NCBI GenBank assembly: GCA_000004985.1 | Contig: GG738896.1 | Length of the DNA: 64,000 bases | Direction: 5' to 3' (one strand) | Origin: Naegleria gruberi | Lineage: Eukaryota | Part shown: positions 3,381 to 27,674 of the stretch, in pieces | Numbering within the stretch: position 1 is the stretch's first letter | Layout: the number at the start of each line of letters is the position of its first letter | Notes under the pieces: generated by a model | What the model was told of the DNA's origin: nothing | Seen by the model: the letters and a program-made list of their open reading frames with translations, nothing else | Databases searched by the model: none | Translations under genes and position numbers: made by a program

Positions 3381-3794
3381 TTCACGATTACTATCACAAA
3401 AATAGTCATTTTGACACATCAAATTTCAAGAAACCTTCAGCTTTTAACAATTCCAAAATTGGAAATTGGAAATTTTTGACTTTGGCTGGATTATTCACTT
3501 TCACTTTTATTTGTCAACACCAAAAGCGTCATTTGGAATATGCTTGTAGAATTGTAGTGTAGAATACTAAACAGCTAATGGATGTATTAATTTTTAATGA
3601 TGACATGAATTTGTATAAGTAGCCGTTGTCTTCGTAACAAAACGTCATCAAGATTTTAAAAAAAAATAACACCATAACGTACTGTGTCGTTTCCTATCGA
3701 GACGAGAAAAAAAGCGATCATCACAAATAATTAATTGATCATCATATCTTTAAAAATCCGTGGATATTGCATTATCATTATTTGAAAATAGAGA

Positions 3795-4833: not shown

Positions 4834-4950
4834 ATAAATCATCAACAAACAAATTTTTGATTTAAGTTGAAAGTTTCTCCAGTTTAATCTTCGTATCACA
4901 AAACAACTTTACTCGCTTTTTACAAAACTCAAGAATCATAAAATATGAAA

Positions 4951-5023
4951 CGCCCACCGTGGGGGTCGAACCCACGACCACAAGGTTAAGAGCCTTGCGC
5001 TCTACCGACTGAGCTAGACGGGC
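4951..5023 (-). tRNA. tRNA-Lys (anticodon CTT)
   Basis: The reverse complement GCCCGTCTAGCTCAGTCGGTAGAGCGCAAGGCTCTTAACCTTGTGGTCGTGGGTTCGACCCCCACGGTGGGCG is 73 nt and cloverleaf-compatible. It is very close to eukaryotic tRNA-Lys-CTT. Confidence 0.9.
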
Positions 5024-5113
5024 TACATTCACAATGAAACTTATTCCTTGATATTCATTCCCGCCTTTGAAATAATTTTAGTTCCCAAGTGTTTGAGGAA
5101 CTTATTGAAAAAA

Positions 5114-7310: not shown

Positions 7311-7521
7311 TTATTAATTGTATCACAAGGTTTGAGTAGTAAATTGGAAGAAATTCTTTGAATCCAAATCATCTTTTCAATCACCCATTCATCAAAAGTG
7401 GTAAATTATTGCATTGAGTCCTTTATTCATTCTTTAGAAAGCCCAGTAACGCACATAGGAAAAGTTCTCGATTATGAAGCATCAAAATGTTGTATCAAGT
7501 ATACTTTATTGTTAAACGTAA

Positions 7522-7594
7522 GGGGATGTAGCTCACATGGTAGAGCGCTTCTTTAGCATGGAAGAGGTACGGGGATCGATACCCCGCATCTCCA
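7522..7594 (+). tRNA. tRNA-Ala (anticodon AGC)
   Basis: GGGGATGTAGCTCACATGGTAGAGCGCTTCTTTAGCATGGAAGAGGTACGGGGATCGATACCCCGCATCTCCA is 73 nt. It shows the G3:U70 Ala identity pair context and an AGC anticodon. Confidence 0.9.
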
Positions 7595-7640
7595 CTTATC
7601 CTTTTTCATCAAGGAATTAAGTATATTTTACTACATTTTA

Positions 7641-8600
7641 TTACATCAAGCCACAATTTGATAATATTGAAGTATTTTGCTTATTAATAACCTCCTTAAT
7701 GTAGTATCCATTTTTGCTTTTAGGAAAGCAAGCTGATTGAAAAAGAGCAAACCAAAAAGGAACATAACAATGTTCTACCTTCATGTCACCTTCCACAAAT
7801 ATTGACTTTTCAAATTGTAATGCCTTTTTCACAGCCTCTCGGTCAATAACTGGTTTTCCATTCCAAATTGGATTCAAATTCACAATTATTCCCAAATTCT
7901 GCAAATTCTTATTGTCTCTCAAATAAGAAAACCATTCGTCCAATTCATCAAATGAATGATGACCCATTGAAAAACATGTGATAATATTGATGGATGAAAT
8001 ACACTCTGTTTGATCGGATATATTATCTGAGAATTCATTTTTCTGAATGAACTCTAAATGACCATGGTAGTATTGAACTGGACCATCATAAATATTTCTA
8101 TAATCACGGAAACGAATAATTGAACCCAACCTTGAAGGACCAAATATTGGCATTCCAACTTTTACAAAGTTTAAGCTTTCAGTACATTCCAAATTTGGAA
8201 AATTGGAATTTTCATAAAGTATTGATCGGTAGAAATTCAATAAAGTGAATTTTGAATGATCCAAAATTTTCAACAAATTTGTTTTGGATTTTTCCAATTC
8301 TTTTTTCAAACAACATTCATACGACAATTCCAATAAATAAAATCGCATAAAATATTTCACATTTCCAATCAATCGAATCCTATTTTCAATATTTTTGCTC
8401 TTACTATTAGTATTCGATTCGAATATAAATGAAATTCTAAAATTACATTTAAAATTATTGTAAAATTTCATAATTTCATCGAAAGAAACAAAACACCTCC
8501 CGATCAATTGATAAATATTCCTATCAAGTGTCAGCAGTGAAGCCAAAACATCAATCGGAAGCATAAACTCCACCACAAGACCCCAAACATCTTGATTCAT
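7641..8600 (-). CDS. Hypothetical protein with an N-terminal F-box-like motif
   Basis: 319-aa ORF. The N-terminus WGLVVEFMLPIDVLASLLTLDRNIYQLI fits an F-box. The rest has no recognisable domain. Confidence 0.45.
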   Translation of the reverse strand: MNQDVWGLVVEFMLPIDVLASLLTLDRNIYQLIGRCFVSFDEIMKFYNNFKCNFRISFIFESNTNSKSKNIENRIRLIGNVKYFMRFYLLELSYECCLKKELEKSKTNLLKILDHSKFTLLNFYRSILYENSNFPNLECTESLNFVKVGMPIFGPSRLGSIIRFRDYRNIYDGPVQYYHGHLEFIQKNEFSDNISDQTECISSINIITCFSMGHHSFDELDEWFSYLRDNKNLQNLGIIVNLNPIWNGKPVIDREAVKKALQFEKSIFVEGDMKVEHCYVPFWFALFQSACFPKSKNGYYIKEVINKQNTSILSNCGLM

Positions 8601-8828
8601 TTTTTTTTAAAGTTATTGTAAACTGATTTGAGTTAAATAACTTCTATTTTACAAAACATCTTGTACAATTACACTTGTATTCATTCGAATAAAATAATAA
8701 GTTTCGTCCATTCTAATTTCTTTCCAGAAATATCTCAAACTCTCACGTGCATTTTCATGTATCATTCCTGAATCTCACTTTCTCTAATATATGCAAATAG
8801 ATATCATGTCAGTTAACCTTCAACTTTG

Positions 8829-9125
8829 TTACTTGATGCACTGTATAACAACCCTTTCATCTATTTTGAATCCGTGTCCAATAACGTGTCCATATCTAGT
8901 GGACATATTTGGACATGTCTCAAATTGTGCAGGATAACGAGTGTAGAATGAGGTAAATTGAATCGATGGATAGGGCCAAAATTCGACCTGAATCCAAAAT
9001 GTGACCATAATCTCAATTCCAAATTTGGAAATATTAAAATGAGTATTTATTTGCCTCTCAACAATTTGAGCTTTGGCTAATTTTTGGTAGAATGGTAAAT
9101 TGTTTGTCCTCGTTTCCTCTATCAT
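8829..9125 (-). CDS. Hypothetical small protein (98 aa)
   Basis: An isolated ORF in an otherwise gene-free 1 kb stretch. No recognisable motifs. It may be an exon of a larger unresolved gene. Confidence 0.2.
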   Translation of the reverse strand: MIEETRTNNLPFYQKLAKAQIVERQINTHFNISKFGIEIMVTFWIQVEFWPYPSIQFTSFYTRYPAQFETCPNMSTRYGHVIGHGFKIDERVVIQCIK

Positions 9126-9841
9126 TTAAAGAGCACACAACAGTTGAGTTTATATTTCATGCAAAACACAAAAAAAAACATGATTGACAATCTAATACAG
9201 TTTCTTCTGACAATTCTATTGCTACTGTTTAGTACTTTCTCGTTCTTTGAGTTGGACGAACTTGATGTGCAGGATAGAGCTCTTGTTCACATGATCAAAA
9301 GAATTGATTCATTTGATCTGATGAGTTATTAAGTTTTTTTTCTCTTTCGAATAGTTATTGTGATAGAAAACAGCAACTGTGGTTGTTGAGAACCTTCTGT
9401 GTAGAAGGTCGTTTCTCTTTACACTAACATTGCAACTAGAGAATACTACACTCTTTAGTCCTCTTTCTAATAAATCCTGAAATTATTCTAATCAGAATAA
9501 TGTTTGAAAAGCAACTTTACAATCTTTTACAGTTCTTCCAGGAATCTTTTCAATTGTAGAGCACCCTGGCTTTAAATTTTATTTAATATTGAATTAATTG
9601 AAACTCTTCAACATTCGAATAATTAAATTCAATTTGTTTACCACAAATAATTGTTAATCCTCCAAACTTGGAACTTCAATCAATCATTGTAATGGGCTTC
9701 AACAAAACCCGTCAAGGCAATGCTCCTTCACGTGTCAACGCTCAGAATTTTGTCACTGCAGTCTTTGAAATAAATTTAATTGACAAGTTGAAGCTGTCAA
9801 AATTTAAATCAAAAAAAACACAACTAAACACACTCACAAAT

Positions 9842-10959
9842 ATGTCCACTTATAAAGACGCCTCTGAAGCTGTTCTCTATGATAAGAATGGTTTGCCAAT
9901 CTATGGTATGGATTTGGAATTGGTATGTAATGATTATTCGAAACTGTTAAACTAAACAATTTTTCTTTTCCTCATTATTATTAATAATAATACAACAAAT
10001 ATTTTCCATTGCCAAATCATTAACCTCATCCATTGTATCAAACATTCCATCCACTCCACACTATTCTTTTATACGAAACCTTTCATAAATTTAAACAACT
10101 ATAGTACAAGAAACAAGCCGGTAAATACGATTCTGACAAGGAAAGAGAAGTTCAACAATGGATCGAATCTGTTGTTGGTGAAAAATTTGCTTCCAACGAT
10201 TTCCAAGAATCACTCAAGGACGGACACTTGTTGTGTAAATTGATCAACAAGATTAAACCAGGTTCCATTCCAAAAATCAACCAATCTAAATTACCATTCA
10301 TGCAAATGGAAAATATTGGTTACTTTTTGAAAGCTGCTGCTGATTTGGGTCTCCAAAAGCATGATGCTTTCATGACTGTTGACTTGTACGAATCAAAGAA
10401 TATTCCACAAGTTATTCAATCACTTTTCATTTTCGGTTCAGTTGTCCAAAAATTGCCAGGTTACAATTTGCCACGTTTAGGATTAAAGTTGGCCGATAAG
10501 AGAGAAATTGAATTCACTGAAGAACAATTGAGAAAGGCCAATGCTGAAGTTGGTCAACAATATATGGCAAGTATTAAGCACGATACTGGTCGTTCAATTT
10601 CCAGAGAAGTTGTCAAGACTCGTGATACTGGTGATGCTTCAGTTACTTCTCAATTGAGTACTGCTTCCATTAAACATGACACTGGTCGTTCAATTTCTAG
10701 AGAAGTTGTCAAGACTAGCTCTACAGGTGACAAGCGTTTCACTTCTCAACAAAATGAAAAGTCAATCTCACACGGTCAAGATAGATCTATCAGTAATGAA
10801 GTTGTCAAGATTCAACCATCTTCATCCAAGAGTCCAACAACCTCCTCTGGATCAATGGATGGTTTGGAAGAATTGGAAAAATTGGCCTCATTGAGAGATA
10901 AGGGAATTTTGACTGAAGAAGAATTCCAACAAAAGAAGAGACAAATTCTCGGATTGTAA
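9842..10959 (+). CDS. Calponin-homology (transgelin/Scp1-like) protein with a C-terminal SHOCT-like motif, 2 exons (9842..9922, 10105..10959)
   Basis: Exon 1 encodes MSTYKDASEAVLYDKNGLPIYGMDLEL. The GTATGT donor is at 9923 and the acceptor AG at 10103-10104. Exon 2 holds the CH domain (YDSDKEREVQQWIE...GHLLCKLINKIKPGSIPKIN...FMQMENIGYFLKAA...VDLYE). Three internal IKHDTGRSISREVVKT repeats follow. The tail is LASLRDKGILTEEEFQQKKRQILGL. Confidence 0.75.
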
Positions 10960-11280
10960 ATCTCATATAATCAAAGTACAAGTGAATAGAAGATTATATT
11001 CTTTTCTCAAATATATTAAATATTATAAAATAGTTAATTCAATATTAAATTTGGTTTCTTTTTGATGTAAATTATTATCGTCAATTCTGGAAATGCATTT
11101 CTTCTTTCTTCCATTTACATATCATCAATTATTAATAAATAATAATTTATTTCCGCATATTGTTGTTATTGTTTTGTAGTACAAACAAATTCATAGAGTT
11201 TAAACTACAAATCAAATTGTAAATTCATTAATCAAAAAGCAAGAATTGGGAAGTGAATATTTGTTCTTCTTGTTGATAAT

Positions 11281-11475
11281 CTATTCTTGACCAACATTTG
11301 GGAAGGCTTCCTTCAAAGTCTTCTTGTGTTTGTTTTCAGCGTGTTCAGCCAAGACTTCAACCTTTGTTGTACACAAGAAGGTTTGCTTGCAGACATCACA
11401 TTGATAAGTGAGAGCCTTTTCGTTAACCTTGGTTTGAGAGGTGTCCTTCTTGTTGAGTTGGGCCATCTTCTTCAT
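11281..11475 (-). CDS. Small C2H2 zinc-finger protein (ZNF706 / SERF-C2H2-like)
   Basis: 64-aa lysine-rich N-terminus followed by YQCDVCKQTF...HAENKHKK. The C-X2-C...H-X3-H spacing matches the ZNF706 family. Confidence 0.5.
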   Translation of the reverse strand: MKKMAQLNKKDTSQTKVNEKALTYQCDVCKQTFLCTTKVEVLAEHAENKHKKTLKEAFPNVGQE

Positions 11476-11999
11476 ATTTCTTTCTCCTATTAATTGTTGT
11501 TATTGTTGTTGAATATTCATCATTAAATATATATTATAATTCGTTTTTGGTTGTTGTTATTATTGTTCAAAAGCAATTCAATGAATATGATAAAACGTTT
11601 TTTCATAATTTCATCATCATTCCATTGTTTTTAAATTTGTTAAACGCATCGGATGGTAATATAAATGCATGAAATGCAAATTAATAATAGAGAGTTGAGA
11701 GAGAACGTACTCTTTTGCTGAGATTGGGCAGAATTTCCTTTGGCCATTGTTGTTGTTATTGATCTAAAAGAACGTTAAAATATTTTTTTAATAAAATTTT
11801 TTGTTGGAGAAATTTTCATAGTTTTTTTCTTTCTTTTCAAAATTTCCTTTTTTAAAACCTTAACGTTCATTTACCTCAATGAATGGTTGAGTATTTTGAA
11901 CAGAATGGGATGTAATTGAAATGATACATATCATTTGAAGTAATTAATTGGTTCTATTGAATAATTTTCATTTTGAAATTTTGAATATTTCAGTGATAT

Positions 12000-12598
12000 T
12001 TATTTACTGAAATATTGAGCTATGGTTTTGACTATATCTTGAGATTCCTTTTCTGAGTTTACTTGATATAAATGTTCGTAAGGGCCTTCATATTGTTGAG
12101 GTGGTTTAAATCCTTTAGCAAATTCATCCACTACCTCATCAGCCTTATCAGCTTGAAGTGTTGGATGGTTCTTTCTCGATTTTACATTTAATTTACATTG
12201 TTCAGGTGTTGTTGCAAACCAAACCAAGTCAATATGTTTCACTCCCAATTTCTTAGCTTCAGTAATCCACATTTTTCTATATCAATTTCAATATCAAAAT
12301 GTCATCGTTATTGTAAATTATTCAATAAATATACTAACCTATCCTTCGGATGAATATTACATCTATCTAATATTACTGACTTGTTATGTTTAAACGATTT
12401 TTCCATCACCTTTTTGCATTCCGAAGCATCTCCCAAAGTATCCTGATTGACTCGCACAAAATTTGTTGATTTCTTTTCTAATTGTTCCGAAAAGGTTGAT
12501 TTTCCAGATCCTGGAAATCCACAACAAATAATTAAATAAGTTTCTGGTGTTACTTTTGCTGTGCTACTACTCGATGATGATTTTTTGGTCATTTTCAA
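12000..12598 (-). CDS. P-loop kinase, polynucleotide-kinase (PNKP kinase-domain)-like, 2 exons (12598..12339, 12276..12000)
   Basis: Walker A LIICCGFPGSGKSTF. Motifs VNQDTLG and ILDRCN are as in PNK-type kinases. The minus-strand GTTAGT donor is at 12338 and the AG acceptor at 12277-12278 (62-nt intron). This joins ...HPKDR to KMWITEAKKLGVKHIDLVWF. Confidence 0.6.
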
Positions 12599-12883
12599 TG
12601 AAGTGTAATAATTATTGGATGAATTTTTATGTTTTGTTATTTTTTTGAGTTTGAATTTTATTTTTAGTTTTATCGTGAACTTTTTGAAACCACATTCAAG
12701 TTCAGAGTTGAAAAATAGTCAAAACTGAGTTTGAATGAATTGTAATTATTATTTAATGGTATTTTGTTAAAGCTTTAAATATTATTACACATGGTGGATT
12801 GTTCTAGTGTGAAAATAGTACACGTGTCGTAGAACTCTGAGTTCTGCTGTTGTTACAATTTCCAGATTTCTTCCTCTTTCTGT

Positions 12884-12897
12884 GAAGGCGCCAAAAT
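12884..12897. promoter_or_regulatory. E2F-like GC element GAAGGCGCCAAAAT, 43 bp upstream of the ATG at 12935
   Basis: GGCGCCAAAA is a half-site of the palindromic TTTGGCGCCAAA motif. It occurs 4 times in this window, always just upstream of a gene start. Confidence 0.4.
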
Positions 12898-12934
12898 TAA
12901 ATGAATTAAAAAACAAATAATTAAAAAAAATAGG

Positions 12935-15508
12935 ATGATGTTTACAAGACAAACTGCCAGAAAATCAACTGGTGGAAAGGCACCTCGCAAACAAGTTGGT
13001 TCAAAATCAGCTTTAGGATTAAATTCTTCTAATGCGAGAAAATATCAAATTAATATTAGCGAGTTGAAGGCTAAACATCAACAGCAACTTTCTGATCAGA
13101 ATAATTATAATTTGAATGATGACGCTGATTTGAAGAAATTTATTGATGATCAATATGAAAATTGTGATGATTTGGTTAAAAAGTGGATTCACGATGATTT
13201 GGTCAATCAAAAAGAGGAGATTCAACAATCGGATAGTGATGTAGAGCTTGATACAAGATTGTTGAAAGAATTGGATGAAAATACCAAGTTTGAAATTTTG
13301 CAATTCATTCCAACATTTTCACCAAATGTTGCCAATCAGTCCTTGACTGAAGAAAGAAATATTGAAATGAATCTCGATACTGAATTGATTAGATTTCACA
13401 AAATGAGATTAATTAACAAGAGTTTCAACAAGATTATGATGAAGAAAATTCTCACTCTCAAACATATTACCTTGAAAACTGCTACCAACACTTTAAATTA
13501 TATTAGTTTGCTCTCTATTGCTCAGAAGGCATACAAACAAGCAATGATGATGAACTCGAACCATGATCTAAATATTGATAATGTTTTATTATATAACCCT
13601 TATTCATCAGTAGAAATAGTTGACAACAACCAAAGTTTTGGTTTCAATAACTTTGGTGGTTTTTCAACAGGTCTCAATAGCTTTGGTGGTTTCTCAACAG
13701 GATTTGGTACTTTCGGTACTACAGCAAGCAGTATACTTCAAAACACCAATGAAATCCCATCCGATTCGAGAGAACTAATTTCTGAAGATTCTGAGGATGA
13801 GCTTATTGCAAAATTGTATTTAAAGAGAGAGGACAAGAAAAATCCCCAAAAAGTAGATATTGATTACATGCGTGAAGAGGTTTATTTATACACACATGCA
13901 TCACATACCACTTCTCAAAATCAAAGTAGTTCATATCCACCTGTTATTATGACAGTCAATGAAACTATTGAAACTTTAACTTTGGTAATGGAAGATCAAT
14001 ATCTAGCCAAAGATATTGTAGGGTTTTTTTCTAAATTGAAAAGACTTAATATTTTCATGAATAATGCAACTTTTTATTACGGAGAAGTATTCAACTTGGC
14101 TTCAGAATCTCTAGAGGAAGTTTTAGTTTGTGGTGCTGGTTTGTTAGAACTTCTTATCAACCAACCATATTTGCTAAGCTCTTTTTCTGGGGCTTCTTGT
14201 CCAAAGATGACATCAGTTACATTTTCTCCTCTACTTCCAAATATTTATGCACCAGAAAATATTCTTGATACCTACTTTTCTCAACTACAAGTCACTAATC
14301 CAACCATCCACAAGCTTAATATTTATGATAAGATTGGTAGAAATGAATCCGCATTTATCAAATCTGAAGTATTTACCACTACCAATCCTGTTCAAAGAGA
14401 GCTAAATGTTTACTGTGTTCAATACAAGTCACTTGTAAACATTGATATCTTGGAGGAACTCTATGATATATTTGGAGACCGTTTCGTGAAAACCGTAATG
14501 CCATTCATGATACTCGGATATAATTGCCCTGTAACATTGGAACATGACCAATCACTTTGGAAATCTCATTTTGTGGAACACATGAAAAAGTTCAAAGATA
14601 CTGCAAATTACTTGTTCAAGAAGAGGAAATTTCCTGTTTCAAACGTGTTGCTTTCATTTGACATTATGACAAATAATGTTTTAGAACAGAACATCAAGGA
14701 CAGCAAATTACAATACCTCATATACCTATGTAACCAGTATCAAAATTCTAAACTTTTAAGCTATCTACCTGAAAACAAACAAACTCTATCAACAATTATT
14801 GCCTCAATTTATAGAGGATGGAATTTCACAAAATATACAAATGATCTCTTGGAATTCTTTGTTAGAGCCTTTTTTCACAGAGGAGTTTCTGCCATGTTAC
14901 ATAACTTTAAGTATGATGAAAAATTTATTGTATCTCAAATTGAGTATTTGGCTACTAGTTACACGATTAGTTCTACGATTAGTTCTAGGGCCGTTATTAC
15001 TGAGATAATTATCCACCTCTTCAGAAATAACTCAAAGGTTCTCTACTCTCTTCTTGCAAAACAGGTGGAAGTTTCTGATAATAACACTACATTTACAATT
15101 CCATTTATTGCCTTCCTCTTCGGAAAGGCAGATTGCTATTTAATTGCTAAACTATTTAATGAAATGGACATGGAAACATTCAATTCTTTAGGTCAAAACA
15201 ATAGAGGCGACAACATTCTCCACATTTATGTTTACTTTCAACAAGAATTTAATTACCTCATCTTTTATTCCATACTAAACAAGAATCCAAACTTGATTAA
15301 CATGGTCAATCACAAATTGCAAACTCCGCTTCATTACTTGATGACACTAAATGACAAGAGATCACCTCTTTTACTTCCAGAAATCAATCAACTTCTTAAA
15401 CGTAATAATATTTTGTTAGATATGAATGTTACCGATTATATGGAACAAACTCCTATGAGTATTCTTAAATCAGAAGAATATGAACATGAAGATATCATGT
15501 TTGAATAA
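12935..15508 (+). CDS. Large protein with a histone H3 tail-like N-terminus, FG-type repeats and C-terminal ankyrin repeats
   Basis: 857-aa single-exon ORF. Residues 3-21, TRQTARKSTGGKAPRKQ, match the H3 tail ARTKQTARKSTGGKAPRKQ at 17 of 18 positions. FGFNNFGGFSTGLNSFGGFSTGFGTFG are nucleoporin-like FG repeats. The C-terminus holds ankyrin repeats (GDNILHIY..., QTPLHYLM..., QTPMSIL). Confidence 0.7.
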   Translation: MMFTRQTARKSTGGKAPRKQVGSKSALGLNSSNARKYQINISELKAKHQQQLSDQNNYNLNDDADLKKFIDDQYENCDDLVKKWIHDDLVNQKEEIQQSDSDVELDTRLLKELDENTKFEILQFIPTFSPNVANQSLTEERNIEMNLDTELIRFHKMRLINKSFNKIMMKKILTLKHITLKTATNTLNYISLLSIAQKAYKQAMMMNSNHDLNIDNVLLYNPYSSVEIVDNNQSFGFNNFGGFSTGLNSFGGFSTGFGTFGTTASSILQNTNEIPSDSRELISEDSEDELIAKLYLKREDKKNPQKVDIDYMREEVYLYTHASHTTSQNQSSSYPPVIMTVNETIETLTLVMEDQYLAKDIVGFFSKLKRLNIFMNNATFYYGEVFNLASESLEEVLVCGAGLLELLINQPYLLSSFSGASCPKMTSVTFSPLLPNIYAPENILDTYFSQLQVTNPTIHKLNIYDKIGRNESAFIKSEVFTTTNPVQRELNVYCVQYKSLVNIDILEELYDIFGDRFVKTVMPFMILGYNCPVTLEHDQSLWKSHFVEHMKKFKDTANYLFKKRKFPVSNVLLSFDIMTNNVLEQNIKDSKLQYLIYLCNQYQNSKLLSYLPENKQTLSTIIASIYRGWNFTKYTNDLLEFFVRAFFHRGVSAMLHNFKYDEKFIVSQIEYLATSYTISSTISSRAVITEIIIHLFRNNSKVLYSLLAKQVEVSDNNTTFTIPFIAFLFGKADCYLIAKLFNEMDMETFNSLGQNNRGDNILHIYVYFQQEFNYLIFYSILNKNPNLINMVNHKLQTPLHYLMTLNDKRSPLLLPEINQLLKRNNILLDMNVTDYMEQTPMSILKSEEYEHEDIMFE

Positions 15509-15617
15509 TTGAAACTTAATGATAGCAAGCATTTCTTCCAAGCTAATAAAATTTTTACAGTAAGGATTTCATGTATTTAATTGTTTGTTGGGCAACCAGA
15601 ATTAATCGATTAATTTT

Positions 15618-15784
15618 ACACTTAAAGGAATCCGCAAACCAATAATGAACCAAAATGAAGTGCATTAGCCGGGAGTCGAACCCGGGTCACCAGCTTGGAA
15701 GGCTGGTATGATACCGTTACACTACTAATGCTTTCTTGGTTAATTCATTCCTTAATGTTCACGATTAAGCACGATATCCCATTC
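15618..15784. repeat. Left arm of an inverted repeat carrying tRNA-Gly(TCC) plus conserved 5' and 3' flanks (partner at 17211..17377)
   Basis: The reverse complement of 15732-15784 (gaatgggatatcgtgcttaatcgtgaacattaaggaatgaattaaccaagaaa) aligns at about 85-90% with 17211-17263 (gaatgagatattgtgcttaaccgtgaatattaaggaatgaaataagcaagaaa). The 3' flanks also align (atgcacttcattttggttcattattggtttgcggattcc versus atgcatttccttttgattcttggtttgcagattccc). Confidence 0.7.
15661..15731 (-). tRNA. tRNA-Gly (anticodon TCC), copy A
   Basis: The reverse complement GCATTAGTAGTGTAACGGTATCATACCAGCCTTCCAAGCTGGTGACCCGGGTTCGACTCCCGGCTAATGCA is 71 nt. It matches eukaryotic tRNA-Gly-TCC (GCCTTCCAAGC anticodon arm, GGGTTCGA T-loop). 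Confidence 0.9.
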
Positions 15785-15912
15785 TGTTTATTCCTTTTTA
15801 ATCAATTTCTGGAACTTTCATTCTTAATTCGAATTGAACATAACGGTACTATAGCATTAGGCCTACTATTCTTGAATTCTCCTGGAGGGAATTTACATCC
15901 CATTTAAAAACA

Positions 15913-17165
15913 ATGAAAGCAAAAAAATTTCAAATCAGTAAAAAAAAAATGGAGCTATTGGAAGAATCATGCTTGCTCTCAGTGATTAATCTTCCAAAAG
16001 AGATTTGGCTCTATCAAATATGTGAATATTTAGATATTCTTGATATGATTTTTTCGCTGGGGAGAGTTTGCAAAGCATTTCGATATGAATTGGCAAACGA
16101 ATATCTTAAAAAATTCCCAAAAACAAAAAAGAAGGATTCGAATGATCAAGTCAGTTCGATAGATAGCTTTTCAATGAGAAGAGTGAAATATATTATCAGA
16201 GATGAATTACTGAAATTTATTGTAAAGTTTGAAAAATCTCTGACGAATGAAGGAATTTTCGAAAAGAAGGACACGAGCCATGTATCAGAACAGTCCAATG
16301 CTCAACAAAATGATCCAAAATCAACAAATGGTGGTCCCACAATAGAAAAAGAACGTTTAATGGAATTATTCCAATCAAGAATGGAAATATTCGACTTTTA
16401 CTTTTCACATTTCTATAAGAAATTACCAAGTGACGCTAGTGAATCAGCTATCAAGCAAACTTCCATTGCTTCTTCCCTATTTAAATCTGAAAATCAATTA
16501 GTTGAATCCTCATCAGCAAGAAACACTGAAATGAAAAAGATTTTGATTATCGGCAATGGTGGAGGTAAGTTTTCATTGTTAAATATTTCTCTAAATATTT
16601 AAAGTTGGAAAAACAACATTTTGCAGATCAATGCAGGATTTACCACTAAACGATAACCGAAATCTACCAACTATTGGTTGTGAAATCAACTCTTACCGAT
16701 TGAAAATTGCCGGTTTGGAAGCAAATATTAATTTATGGGATACAGGTATGTTCCACACTTTTTAATTGAGATTTTTATTAAAATCAAACAGTTGGTCAGG
16801 AAAAGTTTGGTTTTCTTAGAGATACCCTTTATGTGAATACTTCAGTGTGCATCATTTGTTTTGATCTTACCAGTAGATATTCCTACAAATCTATTCTGAA
16901 TTGGTTCAGGGATATCAAAAGAGTGGAACCTGAATGTGAAGTGATATTTGTCGGAACGAAACTAGATCTAACCGACAATCTGAAAGTAACACCCAAGCAA
17001 ATTACTTTTCCAATTAACAAGTATTGTCCATATATTGGATTGAGTAGTCTTCAACAGATTAATAATAGAGCAGTGTTGTGGTATGTTGCTTTTATGAATC
17101 TGTTTGTTTCCCATTTGAAAGGTATTCATGAAACTCTCATTTGTGATAAAGAAACAATAAATTGA
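15913..17165 (+). CDS. Chimeric F-box / Ras-superfamily small GTPase protein, 3 exons (15913..16564, 16605..16745, 16792..17165); 3' end uncertain
   Basis: The N-terminus LPKEIWLYQICEYLDILDMIFSLGRVCKAFRY fits an F-box. Exon 1 ends KILIIGNGG. The GTAAGT donor at 16565 and the 40-nt intron continue VGKTTFCRSMQ...NINLWDT, completing the P-loop GNGGVGKT. A second 46-nt intron gives VGQEKFGFLRD...SVCIICFDLTSRYSY...VIFVGTKLDL (G3, G4 motifs). The C-terminal tail after NKYCPY is unusual and may hide another intron. Confidence 0.65.
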
Positions 17166-17210
17166 TTTAGACTTACCTTAGTGTGGAACATTAAGGTTTT
17201 ATAATAAATA

Positions 17211-17377
17211 GAATGAGATATTGTGCTTAACCGTGAATATTAAGGAATGAAATAAGCAAGAAAGCATTAGTAGTGTAACGGTATCATACCAGCCTTCCAA
17301 GCTGGTGACCCGGGTTCGACTCCCGGCTAATGCATTTCCTTTTGATTCTTGGTTTGCAGATTCCCTTATTATTGTTA
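17211..17377. repeat. Right arm of the inverted tRNA-Gly unit repeat (partner at 15618..15784)
   Basis: See the left-arm entry. The two arms face each other across the F-box-GTPase gene at 15913..17165. Confidence 0.7.
17264..17334 (+). tRNA. tRNA-Gly (anticodon TCC), copy B
   Basis: The 71-nt sequence is identical to the other three copies. Confidence 0.9.
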
Positions 17378-17960
17378 CTGTGGTACTTAAGCAAATGAAA
17401 ATTTTCTCGCGAAAAAATATATATTAAAATACTTCAATACTCTTCTTTGACTCCTTTTGCATATTGGATTATGAACTTTGATTACCATTATTGGTGTTGA
17501 TGTCTAATGGTGAGCTAGTTGAGGGATTGTCTCTTTCAAAATGTGATATTGAGCATATTCATCCTTAATAGAGAGATACCAAGCCGAATCAATTGGCCGT
17601 TCACACACTTGTAAGCATTATTAGACCGTTAGTAGTACATGTACTTGATAAACATGGTAACTAATCGATTGGATTGTTAGTTAAACGAAACTGCTCACAA
17701 CCCATCAAAATATTCGAAAGGTGAAACAAACATCATTTCTGAAATATAGCACGTTTCTTTCGGCGATTTCACATGCATTATTTTGTGAGAACTTTCTATT
17801 TAAGTGCAACATCTTTTTAAATGGAAAGTGATGCCCGAGATGAAATCTCTGAAAAAATAGGTTACTTTCCAATAATTGAAATTTGTAAACGAAAGCACGA
17901 ACAATAACTTTCCACCTGAACCACACAAGAATCTCTTAAAAAAAACAATAACACCCAATC

Positions 17961-19062
17961 ATGAACTATCCTAAAGCTTTAGTTGTATTTCTGATATCTT
18001 TCGCTATCCTCAACGTTGGTATCTTTGCCATCACTGTTTCTCAAGATTTTACCAATGCATTTGATGCAGCTGTCCAAGCAATGATTACTGACAGCGAATG
18101 GAATAAATTCTATTCTGACACGATGTATTTTACAGTGCCAACATGTACAAGTGCAACTGTCAAATGGCCAACTAAGAATCCATTCATTGGTAGAAGTGGT
18201 TTAAACATGTGTTTCGAAACTGGAACTTTATCTCCGTGGTTAGAAACCAAGACGAAAATTGCTCAAATGGTTGTTCAAAAGATTAATTCACACTATGGAA
18301 CAAGTTATAATGCAAATATTTTGAGATTTAATACAAGTGCATTGGGATTCTTTGATACGATGAAAAATGCTGTGAATAATGGAGATTGTAAGTTTCGAAT
18401 ATATTTTTTAAGTTTCGAATATTTTGAAATAATTAATGTTTGATAATTTCGAATAGGTGATATGATAACTGCTAATATTCTTGTTACTGCCGAAAGAAGT
18501 TCATCCATTCATTATCAATGTCCATTCGGATCTGGTTCAAATGGTTGGATCAGAACTAAAAGAGATCCACAACTTTCCATTACTGATATTTCTCAATTGA
18601 ACAAGACTGGAATCATGGTTGGAGGTAAGTTATTGATCATTCATGAAATTTCTCATTCATTATTCAACAAATCTATTCGAAACACAGCTTATGAAGGAAC
18701 TGCTTTTGCAACTTATGTGAAAACTAATCTTCCAGCTGCAACTTTTGTGCCATATTCTGGTATTAACTTGCAATATGACGCTGTTTTGGATGGATCAGTT
18801 CATGCAATTATTGGAGATGGTAAGTTTAATTTAGTTTATTATTGGTATTCGAAACCTTTCAGCTATTCAATATTACAATTGGGCCAATGTTCAAATGTCA
18901 GGAAAATGTAATTGCACTGTTAAAACTTATGGAAATACATTCGGTATGGCCACTTTCACCAATGTGAATATTACAACAAGCGGAGTTGACCAAATCGGCG
19001 GAGGAAATGTTTGGACCTCCTTTTTGGTATTAATAATAGTTTCCATTTTAGTCATGTTTTAA
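17961..19062 (+). CDS. Secreted protein with a bacterial-type periplasmic solute-binding (SBP_bac_3-like) fold, 4 exons (17961..18387, 18457..18624, 18688..18819, 18902..19062)
   Basis: N-terminal signal peptide MNYPKALVVFLISFAILNVGIFA. After splicing out three GTAAGT introns (69, 63 and 82 nt) the protein reads ...DMITANILVTAERSS...GIMVG AYEGTAFATYVKTNLPAATFVPYSGINLQYDAVLDGSVHAIIGDG. This resembles amino-acid-binding SBPs. A hydrophobic C-terminus (SFLVLIIVSILVMF) suggests a GPI or TM anchor. Confidence 0.6.
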
Positions 19063-19160
19063 ATAATAATATACTAATAATTTTTGTCAAGCAACAGTAT
19101 TGTTGACTTCAATAAATCCTAAATATTAAATTAAAAAGAGAAATCTTTAAAAATCTCAAA

Positions 19161-19175
19161 TTTTGGCGCCAAAAG
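19161..19175. promoter_or_regulatory. Palindromic E2F-like element TTTTGGCGCCAAAAG, 11-25 bp upstream of the ATG at 19186
   Basis: A perfect 14-bp palindrome TTTTGGCGCCAAAA lies within an AT-rich intergenic region. Confidence 0.45.
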
Positions 19176-19185
19176 TCAAAAAAAA

Positions 19186-20760
19186 ATGTGGAATGCGAAT
19201 TCTCCTGCGCCATGCTCATCAGGATCATCGGTTGATCAGCAGCAATACAGTCCACTTCCCATCGCCTCTATTCAACAATTTACATCAACAGTAACTCATC
19301 ACGAATTTGTAATGCACTCATCAGAATTATTTGTCGAATTATTTTGAATTCCTGATCGTAAAAAGAAGAATAATTCTGATTATTTGGATGCATATTTCAA
19401 GTCTACAAAGTCTTTTGATGCAAACAAGTATCAATCACAGATTAATCCACAAATTGTACGTCAAGTCCAAATATCAAGTAATGGTATCTCAGATCATTGT
19501 ACAAATGTGCGTTCGTGGTTTATTGAAACCATCATGATGAGAATGGGTATTTTCCTACCTGAGAACATTTCGTTGGTGAAGAGAATTGGAGAGGGAGCTT
19601 ATGGCAGCGTGTATAGAATTGGTAAAGATAAAGTGTTGAAGATTGCTAAAGATGGTGAAGCCATCAAGAAGTTTGATCATCCATTATTGTTGAGTATTGA
19701 GAGGCTTTTTTGGTATGAAGCTGAGAAACTCTTGTTGATTGTTTCTCCATACTATGAATTGGGACATTTGAGAGGTCAATTCACATTAGGTCAATATTGG
19801 TCAATTCTTTGTAATTTGACAAATGCTCTCAAGTATTTACATTCCCAACAAGTTGTTCATAGAGATATCAAGCCAGCAAACATACTTGTAGAAAAAAAGG
19901 ACAAATTTGAAGTGAAAGTTGTTTTAGCTGATTTTGGATTGGCGAAATCGTTCGATTCTTGCAGTGCAGGAAGTGTAGGAACGACCTACTTTGTAGCTCC
20001 AGAATTAATGAAAGGTTATGATGGAGAACATAGTGCTAGAAGAAGAGTTGCCAATGAGAAGAGTGACATTTTTTCTCTTGGAAAGACTATTAGCGTTCTA
20101 ATTTTGAATGACAAACCTGAAGATTTGGAATTTAAGAAGGGGAATTCACTCACCGAATTGCTTAATCGTATGATGAAGTACAAGCCAGAGAATAGACCTT
20201 CGACTGATGAAATTATTTCAATATGTGAAATGGAGATTTCAAAGCTTTCAGAGACTGATTACAATGCAATTTTCAAATTATCCGACAATGATATTGAAAT
20301 ATTTGATGAAATGAGCTTTTACACTGAAAGTAGTTTGAGTGATGGTTTGTTGAAAATGTTAATAAGCGGAGAAAGTTCTCAAAGTCAATCTGCTGTTAAA
20401 CATTCATACACGTTTGATCTTCACGATGACGGTGTTGTAAATGCCAAGAAAATAATTCACATCAAGTGCACACCAGAGGCAAGATTGGCCATCGAATCAA
20501 TCTATCTCAGAATTTACAACACCAAATTCAATACAGGACTCATTGATGTAACCAATTGCTTGTCCAAATCAGTTAGAGAAATATCCAATGATAATGAAAA
20601 GAAATATGCCATCTCTGGTTCACAAAAACAATATCTCATTCCTGCCAAGTCGAAATATCAAAATGAAAAAGGAAAGGACACTATTGAATTGTATATTAAT
20701 AATAGGGATGAACATGTGGCTTCAGCCAATTATGTCGCCAAGAATAATAAAAATAATTAA
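19186..20760 (+). CDS. Ser/Thr protein kinase; the core exon 19366..20760 is certain and the proposed 5' exon 19186..19308 is tentative
   Basis: The kinase core is LVKRIGEGAYGSVYRIGKDKVLKIAK (GxGxxG and VAIK-like), HRDIKPANILV, DFGLAKS, GTTYFVAPE. The TTG-initiated ORF at 19384 has no upstream ATG. An upstream ORF from 19186 (MWNANSPAPCSS...THHEF) ends at a GTAATG donor at 19309. A 57-nt intron to the acceptor AG at 19364-19365 (or 19367-19368) keeps the frame. Confidence 0.6.
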
Positions 20761-20984
20761 TCGAATCCTAAGCTAATAAGAATCAAAAGGAAGTGCATTA
20801 GCCGGGAGTCGAACCCGGGTCACCAGCTTGGAAGGCTGGTATGATACCGTTACACTACTAATGCTTTCTTGCTTATTTATTTTCAACCGTAATGTTCCGG
20901 ATTAAGGGATGCAATATTTTCAATAATTATTTATTTCAATAATCTATTATTCAATTAAAAGTGGAATGACATGTCAGAGAACTT
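20702..20984. repeat. 283-bp direct repeat, copy 1. It spans the kinase C-terminal codons, tRNA-Gly(TCC) and the intergenic region through the 3' end of the RCC1 gene
   Basis: About 97% identical to 22902..23183, with a uniform 2200-bp offset. Confidence 0.85.
20794..20864 (-). tRNA. tRNA-Gly (anticodon TCC), copy C
   Basis: Identical 71-nt sequence on the minus strand. Confidence 0.9.
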
Positions 20985-21034
20985 ATTTATGAACATGAAT
21001 AATAATTCAATATTATTAATTATTACTAAAAAAA

Positions 21035-22714
21035 ATGAGCAAACGAAATAGACACAATTTTCCATTAATTCCGGAGAAGGAAATATTCAATAATAACACT
21101 CAAGCAAAAAAGAAAAAACTTGTACTCCATGAACAACGAGAAGAAATATTTTCAGATGATATTTGTTTTGAAATAATTTCCATGATTGATGATTCGTGGT
21201 TTATTTTAAATAATTGTACTTTAATTTCAAAACAATTCTTTAATGTGATCCGAGAACGTTCTAAACTTGTTATTCAATTTAAAAAAAAATTTACAGAGAA
21301 AAGAATTGAATTATTCATGAAAAGTCAATTCATGAATAGTATTGCTAATGTTAAATTTTCCGTTTACTCCTTAGACAATGCCAAATTCATAAGTGAAATG
21401 AAACAATTGACATCACTTGGTATTGCTGAAAATCGAATTGGTGATGAAGGAGTTAAATTCATAAGTGAAATGAAACAATTAACTTTACTTGATATATGTT
21501 GCAATGAAATTGGTGTTGAAGGAGCCACGTCAATAAGTGAAATGAAGCAATTAACATCACTTAATATTTCTGGCAATCGAATTGGTGATGAAGGAGCTAA
21601 ACTCATCAGTGAAATGAAGCAATTAACATTACTTAATATTGCTGACAACCGAATTTGTGTAGAAGGTGCAAAATCAATAAGTGAAATGAAACAGTTAACA
21701 TCACTTAGTATTTCTGACAACGAAATTGGTGTAGTAGGAGCAAAATTAATAAGTGAAATGAATCAATTAACATTACTTAATATTTCTAACAACGAAATTG
21801 GTGATGAAGGAGCCAAATTCATCAGTGAAATGAAACAATTGATATCGCTTGATATTTCTAACAATCTAATTGATATAGAAGGTGCAAAATCAATAAGTGA
21901 AATGAAACAGTTAACATCACTTGAGATTTATTACAATGAAATTGGTGATGAAGGAGTCAAATTCATAAGTAAAATGGAACAGTTAACATCGCTTGATATT
22001 TCTGGAAATCAAATTGGTGTAGGAGGAGCTAAATCAATAAGTGAGATGAAACAATTGACATTTCTTCAAATATTTTCCAATCGAATTGGTGATGAGGGAG
22101 CAAATTCAATAAGTGAAATGAAGCAATTAACATCACTTAATATTTATTACAATCAAATTGGTGATGAAGGAGTCAAATTCATAAGTGAAATGGAACAATT
22201 AACATCACTTGATATTGGTGGAAATCAAATTGGTGTAGGAGGAGCTAAATCAATAAGTGAGATGAAACAATTGACATTTCTTCAAATATTTTCCAATCGA
22301 ATTGGTGATGAGGGAGTCAAATTCATAAGTGAAATGAAGCAATTAACATCACTTAATATTTCTGGCAATCGAATTGGTGATGAAGGAGCCAAGTCAATAA
22401 GTGAAATGAAGCAATTAACATTACTTTACATTTCTAGCAACGAAATTGGTGATGAAGGAGTCAAATTCATAAGTGAAATGAAACAATTAACTTTACTTCA
22501 AATATATTCCAATCGAATTGGTGATGAGGGAGTCAAATCAATAAGTGAAATGAAGCAATTAACATCACTTAATATTTCTGGCAATCGAATTGGTGATGAA
22601 GGAGTCAAGTCAATAAGTGAAATGAAGCAATTAACATCACTTAATATTTCTAACAATCGAATTGGTGATGAAGGAGTCAAATTATTAACATCACTTAATA
22701 TTGTCTTATTTTAA
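21035..22714 (+). CDS. Leucine-rich-repeat protein (RNI-like, 24-aa repeats), intronless
   Basis: 559-aa ORF from the ATG at 21035. From about aa 120 onward there are roughly 18 tandem units of consensus ISEMKQLTSLNISGNRIGDEGAKS (72-bp DNA period). The N-terminus may contain an F-box-like stretch (ICFEIISMIDDSWFILNNCTLISKQFFNVI). Confidence 0.8.
   Translation: MSKRNRHNFPLIPEKEIFNNNTQAKKKKLVLHEQREEIFSDDICFEIISMIDDSWFILNNCTLISKQFFNVIRERSKLVIQFKKKFTEKRIELFMKSQFMNSIANVKFSVYSLDNAKFISEMKQLTSLGIAENRIGDEGVKFISEMKQLTLLDICCNEIGVEGATSISEMKQLTSLNISGNRIGDEGAKLISEMKQLTLLNIADNRICVEGAKSISEMKQLTSLSISDNEIGVVGAKLISEMNQLTLLNISNNEIGDEGAKFISEMKQLISLDISNNLIDIEGAKSISEMKQLTSLEIYYNEIGDEGVKFISKMEQLTSLDISGNQIGVGGAKSISEMKQLTFLQIFSNRIGDEGANSISEMKQLTSLNIYYNQIGDEGVKFISEMEQLTSLDIGGNQIGVGGAKSISEMKQLTFLQIFSNRIGDEGVKFISEMKQLTSLNISGNRIGDEGAKSISEMKQLTLLYISSNEIGDEGVKFISEMKQLTLLQIYSNRIGDEGVKSISEMKQLTSLNISGNRIGDEGVKSISEMKQLTSLNISNNRIGDEGVKLLTSLNIVLF
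21390..22690 (+). repeat. Intragenic 72-bp tandem repeat array (LRR units)
   Basis: The gtgaaatgaaacaattaacatcacttaatatttctggcaatcgaattggtgatgaaggagc... unit is repeated about 18 times with point variation. It produces spurious antisense ORFs at 21364..21720 and 22498..22680. Confidence 0.8.
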
Positions 22715-22901
22715 TTGGGTGTTTATTGAAACGCCTTAATCAATGATATTAATGAAGAAGGAGTTAAATATTAGAGAGACATGAAACAATTAATTGCTCT
22801 TGTTTAGTTCGTGTGATGGATCTTGACATGAACTTGATTGTTGACTTAATTTGTCTCTCATGGAATCAATGAAGTTACTAACTTTTTGTCATATATAGAC
22901 G

Positions 22902-23183
22902 ATAGGGATGAACATGTGGCTTCAGCCAATTATGTCGCCAAGAATAATAAAAATAATTAATCGAATCCTAAGCTAATAAGAATCAAAAGGAAGTGCATTA
23001 GCCGGGAGTCGAACCCGGGTCACCAGCTTGGAAGGCTGGTATGATACCGTTACACTACTAATGCTTTCTTGCTTATTTATTTTCAACCTTAATGTTCCGG
23101 ATTAAGGGATGCAATATTTTTCTTAAAATAATTATTTATTTCAATAATCTCAATTAAAAGTGGAATGACATGTCAGAGAACTT
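22902..23183. repeat. 283-bp direct repeat, copy 2 (includes a pseudo-fragment of the kinase C-terminus and tRNA-Gly copy D)
   Basis: 22903-22960 repeats the last 19 codons plus stop of the kinase gene (RDEHVASANYVAKNNKNN*). The sequence through 23183 matches 20702..20984. Confidence 0.85.
22994..23064 (-). tRNA. tRNA-Gly (anticodon TCC), copy D
   Basis: Identical 71-nt sequence on the minus strand. Confidence 0.9.
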
Positions 23184-24860
23184 GTGTAAATTATCATCTA
23201 CAGATTGATTCAATAATTTTTGTTTGAAATTGTCTGCTGAGCCACGGAATTCTGCTATCAGAAGCATATTTACATCACATCCAGATTGCACATCCAAAAT
23301 ATCGTATTTTTCTTTGAATAATAACTCGGCCAATTTTCTATCCAACATCTTATTGGTTGCAGAAAGAGAAGATGGTGAAATAACAGAGACGTATGGAGAT
23401 TGAAATGGCAGAATTTCCTTTGAAACACCCGAATATTTACCACCTTGTGTGAATAGAGTCTTCTTATTGATTGTACCAAAAGAGCAATAGTATCCGCCAA
23501 AGAGTTTAATGTCCATCGAGCCCAAATCGCAATAGCTACTGAATAAATCCTGTTGTTTTTTTTCATTACTTGTAATGACTGGTTTTTCAAGAGGAGATGA
23601 GCTATTGATCCAGTGAGAGCTGTTTGACATGTGACCACCAGCAAATGCTCTTACGTTTCTTTCAATCAAATCAAATTCATTTCGTTCCTTTCCAATGAAA
23701 TGGAGAGAATTGTCTTCCAATTGAGCATAGACTCCATTATCAGTTTGTCCAATTTTTACAATAGGATATTTCAATGCATCTAGATTTGGAACTCGGTGTG
23801 TAGTTCCAGCAGTTACTTTCCATGCAGTTTCACCACAACTATAAATCAAAAATCTGTTAAAGACCAATGCACTTGAAAATGTACCACAAGTCAAGTCTGT
23901 CACTCTATAGGTTTCGTATGGATTTTCATCATGATTACCCGATTTAAAAATGTCAAAAGAATCATTCAAAACTTGATATTGAGGATTGAAATCTGCTCCA
24001 AACAATTGTTTGAAATAAGAGTGACCAGCTCCCAAAATAATATTCCTATTCACAACAATAATGGTATGGAACCAACCACAGGCAACAAAATCAACAGTTT
24101 GAATATTACTAAAATGTTGTCTGATAAAACTTTCTTGCTTTTCACTCCAATTACGAGTTCTAATGATAGAAGGCAATGCATTAGACATGGCAGATGTTAA
24201 ATAATCATTCAATGGTGAAAATAGCTCTACATATTCAGAGGGTTCAGTTTGTAACTGATTATAATTATTCTTTCCACAGCCAAATACTTTAGCATCACTC
24301 GCTATATTTGATTAACACAACAACAGTCAATAATATTAGCTACTTACTAGCAATCAATGAGTGAGATCTTCCGCAAGCAATAATATTCACTCGACTAAGA
24401 ATTTCTTCACTTTCATTATCAGAAAGTCCTTTAATTTGTGTAACTTCCTTCCATTCTTCCATTGAACTAACATCATTCCTATCAAAACCTAATTGTGCAC
24501 TATCATTAGATCCTATTTAAATATATTTGTAACGTTAAACTTCATCATGCAAACGTTTCGAAACTTACCTGAAGTAAATATCTTGGCTCTCTTGATAGAA
24601 TTGCCTGACGAGGCTGATGGTAATTGTCTCTTGGTTGCTGGATTTCTTTCCTTTTGCTTCTTTCTATTATTATTTGATAAAGTTGAATTATTCAGTGATG
24701 GTGAGGATATTATCGATGTTTCTGATGATGAAGGAGAAGACTGATCACTAACCACCTGATTCAAATCTTCATTCTGGTCCGATCGGTTGTTATTACTACC
24801 AAATAGCGATCCAAAAAATTGCTTCATTCTTTCAATGAGTTTTTTCAAGTGTTTTTTCAA
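23154..24860 (-). CDS. RCC1-repeat (beta-propeller) protein, 3 exons (24860..24569, 24512..24348, 24301..23154)
   Basis: The ATG at 24860 starts MKKHLKKLIERMKQ.... Minus-strand donors are GTAAGT at 24568 and GTAAGT at 24347, with acceptors AG at 24514-24513 and 24303-24302 (56-nt and 46-nt introns). The spliced protein has RCC1 signatures GSNDSAQLGFD, ACGRSHSLIA, VFGCGKNNYNQL, ACGWFHTIIV, LGAGHSYFKQLG. Confidence 0.7.
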
Positions 24861-26765: not shown

Positions 26766-27674
26766 ATGAATAAGGCAAAGAACAAAGCCAAGAAAACTCA
26801 AGCAAGCACTTCCTTTGCCAAAGATGTTTCCCAAGAAGGCTCTTCCTCGCCAGCTAAAAAAGTATCACAAGTAAGCGCTTCCTATCCATCAAAACAGGTT
26901 TCCCAAGAAGGGTCTTCCCCTCAAAACAAAGAGGTATCACCTACTTTCAAATGTGAATGCAACACTTCTATATACAATCAAATACGCAACGCAGATACAA
27001 CCACAGGTATCCAATTACTTGTAAACACTTTAGTTCAGTTCATAGATGATATTAACCAAGATATTGCATGTATTAAACAAGATATTGCATGTATTAAGCA
27101 AGATATTGCAAGTATTAAGAAGGATTTGAACAATCCTAACACAAATGTTGGATGTTTGTATGAGTTACAAGTTAAGAATGAATTTGAAAAGGAATACAGT
27201 CATGTCGAGTGGCCAATGATATTGCAAAGAAAACAATTTCCTAAGCAATTTTTCGAAGTAGATGCGAACAGCAGTCACTATACTAACCTGTGCAATGAAT
27301 TAGTGGAGTCCAAAGTGATGTCATTGGAGAATGCTACAGTATTGGACTTATTTATTGGCAGTGTGGAAATTAACGTTGTTAGGAAAGAAACACAATCCAA
27401 AAATGATACTCATATCATTGAAGTAACAATGTCCTCCTTTACCAATGACTGCCAGTTGATTTGTAAACTTTTACAATTGGAACGACAAGCTCTTTATTAC
27501 AGAGCTTGCTATCCAAATGACAAAATTACAACAATTGGATTGGTTTCTCCTTCCAGTTTGACTATAGACAGAATTAAGGGGGTAGTAGAGAAATATTCAA
27601 ACTTTGTTATTGTTAGATCATTTCTTGAGAGTGGAAATTTCAAGGTTCAGAGACATAGCAATAAGCCAATTTAA
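26766..27674 (+). CDS. Hypothetical protein with N-terminal KxVSQEGSS repeats and a QDIACIK heptad repeat
   Basis: 302-aa ORF from the ATG at 26766. There are three 21-bp DNA repeats (caagatattgcatgtattaaa) at 27058-27125. No known domain. Confidence 0.45.
   Translation: MNKAKNKAKKTQASTSFAKDVSQEGSSSPAKKVSQVSASYPSKQVSQEGSSPQNKEVSPTFKCECNTSIYNQIRNADTTTGIQLLVNTLVQFIDDINQDIACIKQDIACIKQDIASIKKDLNNPNTNVGCLYELQVKNEFEKEYSHVEWPMILQRKQFPKQFFEVDANSSHYTNLCNELVESKVMSLENATVLDLFIGSVEINVVRKETQSKNDTHIIEVTMSSFTNDCQLICKLLQLERQALYYRACYPNDKITTIGLVSPSSLTIDRIKGVVEKYSNFVIVRSFLESGNFKVQRHSNKPI

Follow-up and report, generated by a model that had tools for sequence, protein, structure and literature searches.

In Naegleria gruberi, four tRNA-Gly(UCC) genes lie within 7.4 kb of genomic DNA and share flanking sequence on both sides; judging from the sequence, these shared flanks are probably the residue of repeated local duplications at the DNA level, with selection acting on the tRNA only. 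The window, i.e. the whole 64-kb stretch of DNA analysed here, is AT-rich (31-37% G+C) and has short introns of the form GTAAGT...AG. ARAGORN predicted seven tRNA genes in it, including four of tRNA-Gly(TCC). The positions that the initial annotation had given for these four genes, here called copies A to D, were recovered by both ARAGORN and Rfam:

15661-15731, minus strand, copy A, tRNA-Gly(UCC)
17264-17334, plus strand, copy B, tRNA-Gly(UCC)
20794-20864, minus strand, copy C, tRNA-Gly(UCC)
22994-23064, minus strand, copy D, tRNA-Gly(UCC)

Every copy scored 69.3 bits against Rfam RF00005 (gathering score 29), and the 71-nt tRNA sequence is 100% identical across A, B, C and D. A perfect B box, GGTTCGACTCC, lies inside each of the four genes, and perfect matches to the pattern GGTTCGANTCC place this internal B box at 15672-15682, 17313-17323, 20805-20815 and 23005-23015. 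A candidate terminator, TTTT, is found at +6 to +9 in all four copies. Covariance-model match, B box and oligo-T, all features of a canonical type-2 Pol III tRNA gene, were thus found in each of them, and each also has an internal A box. Copies A to D are most likely ordinary, self-sufficient Pol III genes, all of which would give the same tRNA-Gly(UCC). The gaps between successive genes measure 1532, 3459 and 2129 nt.

The flank common to all four copies comprises about 38-43 nt on the 5' side and about 37-39 nt on the 3' side. The portion clearly shared by all four is therefore about 150 nt long (~40 + 71 + ~39), with weaker homology extending to about -75, so the unit of about 200 bp proposed at the outset is generous yet acceptable; beyond about -90, no sequence is shared between A/B and C/D. 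A 5' motif, CTTAATCGTGAACATTAAGG, has exactly four matches in the 64 kb when up to three mismatches are allowed, and a junction motif, AAATAAGCAAGAAAGCATTAG, also has exactly four. All these matches are located at the tRNA-Gly loci and shuffled sequences are expected to give none, which indicates that the repeat is real and far beyond chance. The only flank copy devoid of a tRNA in the 64 kb is a second 5' element close to copy B on its upstream side. Unrelated flanks, in which the tRNA-Gly flank motifs are absent, surround the tRNA-Pro, -Lys and -Ala genes of the window, as the initial annotation had said of these other three tRNAs. The repeat units and their parts are as follows:

15622-15792, minus strand, copy A unit; its 3' flank is 15622-15660, with TTTT at 15652-15655
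15732-15769, 5' side of copy A common to all copies, with an A/B-specific extension up to 15792
17176-17211, plus strand, tandem second copy of the 5'-flank element, at -88 to -53 of copy B
17203-17371, plus strand, copy B unit; its 5' flank is 17203-17263, with the shared core at 17226-17263
17335-17371, 3' flank of copy B, with TTTT at 17340-17343
20692-20985, minus strand, copy C unit, including the authentic 3' terminus of the kinase CDS, which runs to 20760
about 20951-20989, stray 3' fragment of the RCC1-like CDS in copy C
22892-23184, minus strand, copy D unit, including the authentic 3' terminus of the RCC1-like gene (stop at 23154)
22892-22960, stray 3' fragment of the kinase CDS in copy D

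Pairwise local alignment of the flanks gave 88.5% identity over 61 nt (5') and 78% over 37 nt (3') for A versus B, 90% over 125 nt (5', gapped) and 95% over 108 nt (3') for C versus D, and 74-80% over about 43 nt (5') and 77-78% over about 39 nt (3'), with indels, for A/B versus C/D. The similarity is hence nested, and the copies group as ((A,B),(C,D)). An identity of 85-100% in the flanks, reported earlier for all copies, holds only within the pairs; between them it drops to 74-80% with indels. The limits of homology also belong to the pair, lying at -61 and +37 for A/B and at about -125 and +105 for C/D. The inverted match between A and B covers 146 nt at 93% identity without gaps, within a homologous unit of about 170 bp in total. 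C and D align without gaps at 98% over 229 nt and at 95% over a further 39 nt, with a spacing of 2200 nt; overall they are about 98% identical over about 294 bp, of which about 176 nt show no difference at all.

Copies A and B stand on either side of a small protein-coding gene with three exons:

15913-17165, plus strand, Ran-family small GTPase gene, exons 15913-16564, 16605-16745 and 16792-17165

The spliced product of this gene is 100% identical to an N. gruberi 'ran family small GTPase' in the NCBI protein collection, and the annotated protein, EFC39869.1, begins at the second Met (15949). The inverted pair flanking a GTPase gene is thus real, whereas its description needs two amendments. 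The two copies, said to face each other, are indeed inverted, but they are divergent rather than convergent: their 5' flanks are turned towards the gene between them, and they would be transcribed outward. The gene between them had been read as F-box/Ras-like, and its GTPase part stands (annotated as ran family), but the F-box-like match at the N-terminus is weak (Pfam E=0.0037, 17.5 bits, under the 24.3-bit cut-off). No orthologue of the Ran-like gene was found outside N. gruberi in the protein collection, and the regions inside and outside the A/B pair have no homology to anything else in the window. The second 5' element just upstream of B (17176-17211) is 83% identical to the 5' core of C and D. 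Its alignment score was reached in 0 of 300 and 0 of 500 shuffles, and the similarity extends further, as a degenerate match to the tRNA's first ~19 nt. This indicates that small tandem or partial duplications have been recurrent at this tRNA gene.

The C/D repeat reaches into the neighbouring genes on both sides. Homology begins at 20692/22892, within the last ~69 nt of the kinase CDS (stop at 20760), and stops near 20985/23184, within the last ~31-35 nt of the RCC1-like CDS on the minus strand. Since the ends of both coding sequences lie inside the repeat, it represents a segmental DNA duplication and not a discrete element, and the presence of one stray gene fragment in each copy points to an ancestral locus in which a tRNA-Gly gene on the minus strand lay between the plus-strand kinase gene and the minus-strand RCC1-like gene. 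The gene models underlying these boundaries agree with annotated proteins: the kinase, a TauE-family protein and an 857-aa protein match N. gruberi NEG-M proteins exactly, and so does a three-exon model of the RCC1-like gene. The protein collection contained no orthologue of the kinase from any organism other than N. gruberi. The C and D units are separated by a 1.9-kb segment (20986-22891), whose junctions have no homology to anything else in the window and which holds one gene:

21035-22714, plus strand, gene of 17-19 leucine-rich repeats (LRR), each 72 nt long (Pfam LRR_6, E=2e-85)

The link that had been drawn between the tRNA repeat and the LRR insertion is therefore real, with the C and D units bracketing the LRR gene. 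A contig from an ENA metagenome (L007) represents a strain that is 97.7% identical to the window in DNA, and it carries the same tRNA-Gly 33-34 nt past the kinase stop, which identifies copy C as the resident copy. At loci anchored on the TauE-family gene in N. lovaniensis, in Willaertia magna and in three metagenome/Logan contigs, no tRNA genes were found, indicating that the tRNA cluster is not syntenic in those genomes. A search of JGI metagenomes with sub-patterns of the tRNA gave no matches. A 351-kb ENA contig (L008), considered on account of a 53-aa RCC1-like cluster member (P0166), has no DNA similarity to the window and was set aside.

The copies themselves, the nesting of their similarity, the limits of the duplications and the gene pieces within C and D, all of which are observed directly, probably arose through a short series of local events. 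In the most plausible order, (i) an old duplication would have founded the A/B and C/D lineages, whose flanks are now 74-80% alike; (ii) the 5' flank would have been partially duplicated in tandem within the A/B lineage; (iii) an inverted duplication of about 170 bp would have placed A and B on either side of the lineage-specific Ran-like gene; and (iv) a recent direct duplication of about 294 bp, covering the kinase/tRNA/RCC1-like intergenic region, would have come to bracket the inserted LRR gene. Each duplication would have taken the tRNA gene plus 40-130 bp per side, after which the flanks may have drifted in a roughly neutral manner, while the 71-nt tRNA would have been kept identical by purifying selection, possibly with the help of gene conversion. 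At a tRNA gene under heavy transcription, a conceivable route would be template switching or the repair of breaks, and the resulting copies could later have served as substrates for non-allelic recombination. Between A and B, 4 of 38 positions differ in the 5' core common to all copies, 3 of 23 in the pair-specific extension and 0 of 71 in the tRNA; core and extension have thus diverged about equally, which is the pattern expected if only the tRNA is under selection. Moreover, N. gruberi has been reported to contain 924 tDNAs (PMC2888827), which suggests that tRNA amplification is common in this genome.

Alternatively, the shared flanks could be functional and selected in their own right, acting as an upstream element, specific for the anticodon, that would position TFIIIB or determine the expression level, together with a 3' trailer/terminator context. 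We consider this unlikely; such an element would contain the imperfect palindrome CCTTAAT-N7-ATTAAGG and the A/T-rich stretch at -21 to -8. There is a precedent in animals, where upstream motifs are common to tRNA genes for the same codon (PMC3082873). Between about -16 and +14, only one position differs among B, C and D, whereas their distal flanks are about 25% different; this near-invariance runs counter to pure drift and fits a constraint on the start site and trailer, or gene conversion, better. Copy A, however, has four changes within this 'invariant' proximal zone, and, as noted above, the core shared by A and B is conserved no better than their extension. Leader and trailer of copy A are distinct from those of the other copies, and B differs at +1. 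The 3' homology stops at +37 to +39 in two supposedly independent duplications, which counts against duplication alone. The palindrome is kept in 5 of 5 copies of the 5' element, including the second one upstream of B, but the mismatches in its arms are uncompensated in B, in C and in the distal B copy, and five copies descending from one ancestor within 7.4 kb are not independent evidence. A further motif, GAACATTAAGG, occurs 10 times with up to one mismatch where 1.95 occurrences are expected, and half of these (5 of 10) are at the Gly loci.

Other observations weigh against selection on the flanks. The window's Pro, Lys and Ala tRNA genes do not carry the motifs, which are thus no general element of Pol III genes. 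In the strain represented by L007, only 2.3% diverged overall, one substitution and one indel have already altered 2 of 33 positions in the 3' flank of copy C. The folding of the flanks as RNA is no better than that of shuffled sequences (z-scores from -1.6 to +0.6). The earlier suggestion of a promoter or TFIIIB-positioning element accordingly finds nothing in the window to support it, given that the other tRNAs lack the motif and the flank core is not extra-conserved. A YGTGAA-like hexamer, which directly precedes the Pro and Lys tRNAs and lies at -34 to -26 of Gly copies A and B, was noticed post hoc and was rejected as non-significant after multiple testing. In dictyostelids, a second B-box consensus, the external B box (ex-B), lies 20-40 nt downstream of the tRNA; none of the four tRNA-Gly 3' flanks contains a match to GGTTCGANTCC with up to two mismatches. 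A companion snRNA or 7SL gene of the trypanosomatid type, divergent and about 95-100 nt upstream, was likewise not detected by Rfam at E<=1 over 15000-24000, where the search returned only tRNAs plus one sub-threshold snoRNA-like match elsewhere in that interval.

In its most specific form, the functional reading would make the 5' element a Naegleria-specific and tRNA-Gly-specific upstream control element, composed of the palindrome at about -43 to -24 and the A/T-rich stretch and present once or twice per copy, and we regard this form as quite improbable. If it were true, the element would act on Pol III and may also serve the divergent protein genes 170-181 nt away, and it would have been co-duplicated because a tRNA copy without it would not be expressed. 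The Ran-like and LRR genes do each start 170-181 nt from a divergent tRNA-Gly, but with only two cases, the similar spacing of both lineage-specific genes may be due to chance.

The C/D duplication around the LRR gene could also be an artefact of assembly, in which two haplotypes of a heterozygous or polyploid genome, with and without the LRR gene, were merged in series. It is true that C and D are identical over about 176 nt and about 98% identical overall, at a tidy spacing of 2200 nt. In addition, the L007 contig crosses the left duplication boundary unbroken from unique kinase sequence, runs through the whole tRNA and ends exactly at the tRNA 5' end. This continuity fits a related strain that would lack the D-type junction; however, coverage in the metagenome behind L007 is low, and the lack of a branch in it is only weakly informative. 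C and D are moreover separated by several indels and substitutions in their 5' part, every junction is continuous with unique sequence, and an artefact would leave both the A/B pair and the older similarity between A/B and C/D unexplained. We hold such an artefact to be very unlikely.

It is still harder to believe that the unit is a mobile or tRNA-derived repeat (SINE, MITE), or a tRNA-targeting cassette that spreads and carries or attracts F-box genes, even though four copies in both orientations occur within 7.4 kb and the Ran-like and LRR genes, both lineage-specific, are each enclosed by a pair of copies. All copies have an intact, identical tRNA, which is not the degenerate head of a SINE, and the homology covers 40-130 nt ahead of the Pol III start and continues beyond the TTTT. 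The co-copying of upstream and post-terminator DNA argues against an RNA intermediate, i.e. against retroposition. Poly(A) or simple-repeat tails are lacking, no short target-site duplications or flanking direct repeats were seen, the boundaries differ from pair to pair, with the C/D ends falling inside neighbouring CDSs, and there are no other partial or solo copies in the 64 kb. A tRNA-derived SINE was rejected on the combination of intact tRNA, upstream homology, missing tail, missing target-site duplications and variable ends. The description as a 'tRNA-derived dispersed repeat' consequently fails where it means a SINE or mobile element and holds where it means DNA-level duplicates tied to local rearrangement.

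The successive local duplications favoured here resemble tDNA amplification as surveyed in eukaryotes, in which same-isoacceptor copies lie nearby in either orientation and identical tRNAs are accompanied by flanks that decay with age (Bermudez-Santana et al. 2010, PMC2888827). Unlike the homogeneous clusters of that survey, with a spacing below 1000 nt, the Naegleria copies are spaced at 1.5-3.5 kb and have protein-coding genes in between, and, as a further difference, one of the Naegleria duplications also takes the ends of two CDSs. The tRNA-Gly locus is thus a looser, gene-interspersed cluster. As with the anticodon-specific 5' motifs of animals, the 5' similarity is confined to tRNA genes with the same anticodon and sits in the TFIIIB-binding region, but the animal motifs come from unlinked genes genome-wide whereas the Naegleria evidence consists of four linked recent paralogues (Zhang et al. 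2011, PMC3082873). As with tRNA-derived SINEs and the retrotransposons that target tRNA genes, such as Dictyostelium TRE and DGLT-A and yeast Ty3, repeats accompany tRNA genes, and foreign DNA is found within about 100-130 bp of a tRNA gene; in contrast to these elements and to SINEs, there is no retroelement sequence, target-site duplication or A-tail, and the tRNA is intact (PMC5006619). The duplicated flanks in Naegleria also hold upstream DNA plus neighbouring CDS, unlike SINEs or tRNA-targeting retrotransposons. Plant tRNA genes have TATA and CAA motifs in their upstream sequence; the seven tRNA genes in the window showed no shared signature of the TATA/CAA type. Inverted pairs of same-type tRNA genes were reportedly found by Kellis et al. 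(2003) at the ends of small inversions in Saccharomyces genomes. The identical, inverted tRNA genes A and B similarly bracket a short segment (1.4 kb) and could readily undergo inversion by non-allelic recombination, but, unlike those pairs, they are a candidate inversion substrate only.

Local tDNA duplication, the most likely explanation here, is an already known, ordinary way in which tRNA gene families grow, and the finding has little significance beyond documentation. If the flanks did act as a Pol III element specific to Gly, they would count as one of the first Pol III cis-elements described in Heterolobosea, but nothing requires this. What the locus offers is a clean, datable case of copy gain in a protist whose set of tRNA genes is unusually large, in which tRNA-bearing segments of 150-300 bp have been duplicated within a few kilobases in either orientation. 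The inverted A/B and direct C/D pairs are potential substrates for inversion and deletion and could affect structural variation among strains.

A Naegleria gruberi-like strain is present in the ENA metagenome ERZ929261 (run ERR1078381, project PRJEB11402), with DNA identity to the window of 96.6-97.7%, and two contigs of this metagenome are listed here:
L001, contig of 2192 nt, ENA metagenome ERZ929261 / ERR1078381 / PRJEB11402
L007, contig of 1911 nt, ENA metagenome ERZ929261 / ERR1078381 / PRJEB11402
The terminus of L007 coincides exactly with the 5' end of the tRNA-Gly gene orthologous to copy C.

Directly upstream of the genes for tRNA-Pro, tRNA-Lys and tRNA-Ala, and around -34 to -26 in tRNA-Gly copies A and B, lies a YGTGAA/CGTAAG-like hexamer, a motif that was picked post hoc and is without significance once multiple testing is allowed for. 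Its sites in the window are as follows:
3381-3390, hexamer site
5024-5040, hexamer site
7510-7521, hexamer site
15757-15765, hexamer site
17231-17239, hexamer site
A weak SNORD25-like C/D-box match at 19241-19331 (-), whose 21.8 bits (E=0.75) fall short of the gathering score of 39, is probably due to chance. Elsewhere in the window, long Lys/Ala-rich coding repeat arrays of the AAGAAGGC-type (38780-40050, +; periods of 9, 12 and 21 nt) resemble a strongly basic protein, for instance one like histone H1, and short tandem repeats of 21 nt (27050-27125) and 36 nt (26820-26940), both in frame, apparently lie inside coding sequence.

At 20692-23184, two direct repeats of ~294 bp each, both containing a tRNA-Gly gene together with pieces from the ends of the kinase and RCC1-like coding sequences, enclose a 1.9-kb segment with a leucine-rich repeat (LRR) gene:
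21035-22714, LRR gene within the bracketed 1.9-kb segment
Between the 5' end of a divergent tRNA-Gly and the start of this gene there are 170 nt (20864-21035), and for the Ran-like small GTPase gene, which is likewise lineage-specific, the corresponding distance from another divergent tRNA-Gly is 181 nt (15731-15913); the similar spacing may be coincidence, because there are just two cases. The site at 32959-32993 (-) resembles the LRR repeat unit, a likeness which suggests that the window has a second LRR gene; none of the seven tRNA genes called, all within 3309-23064, is anywhere near this site. Degenerate LRR-like sequence also runs past the stop codon of the bracketed LRR gene up to ~22802. 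The arrangement has the look of an inserted gene whose target was duplicated over a very long stretch, or else of a tandem duplication that later received an insertion.
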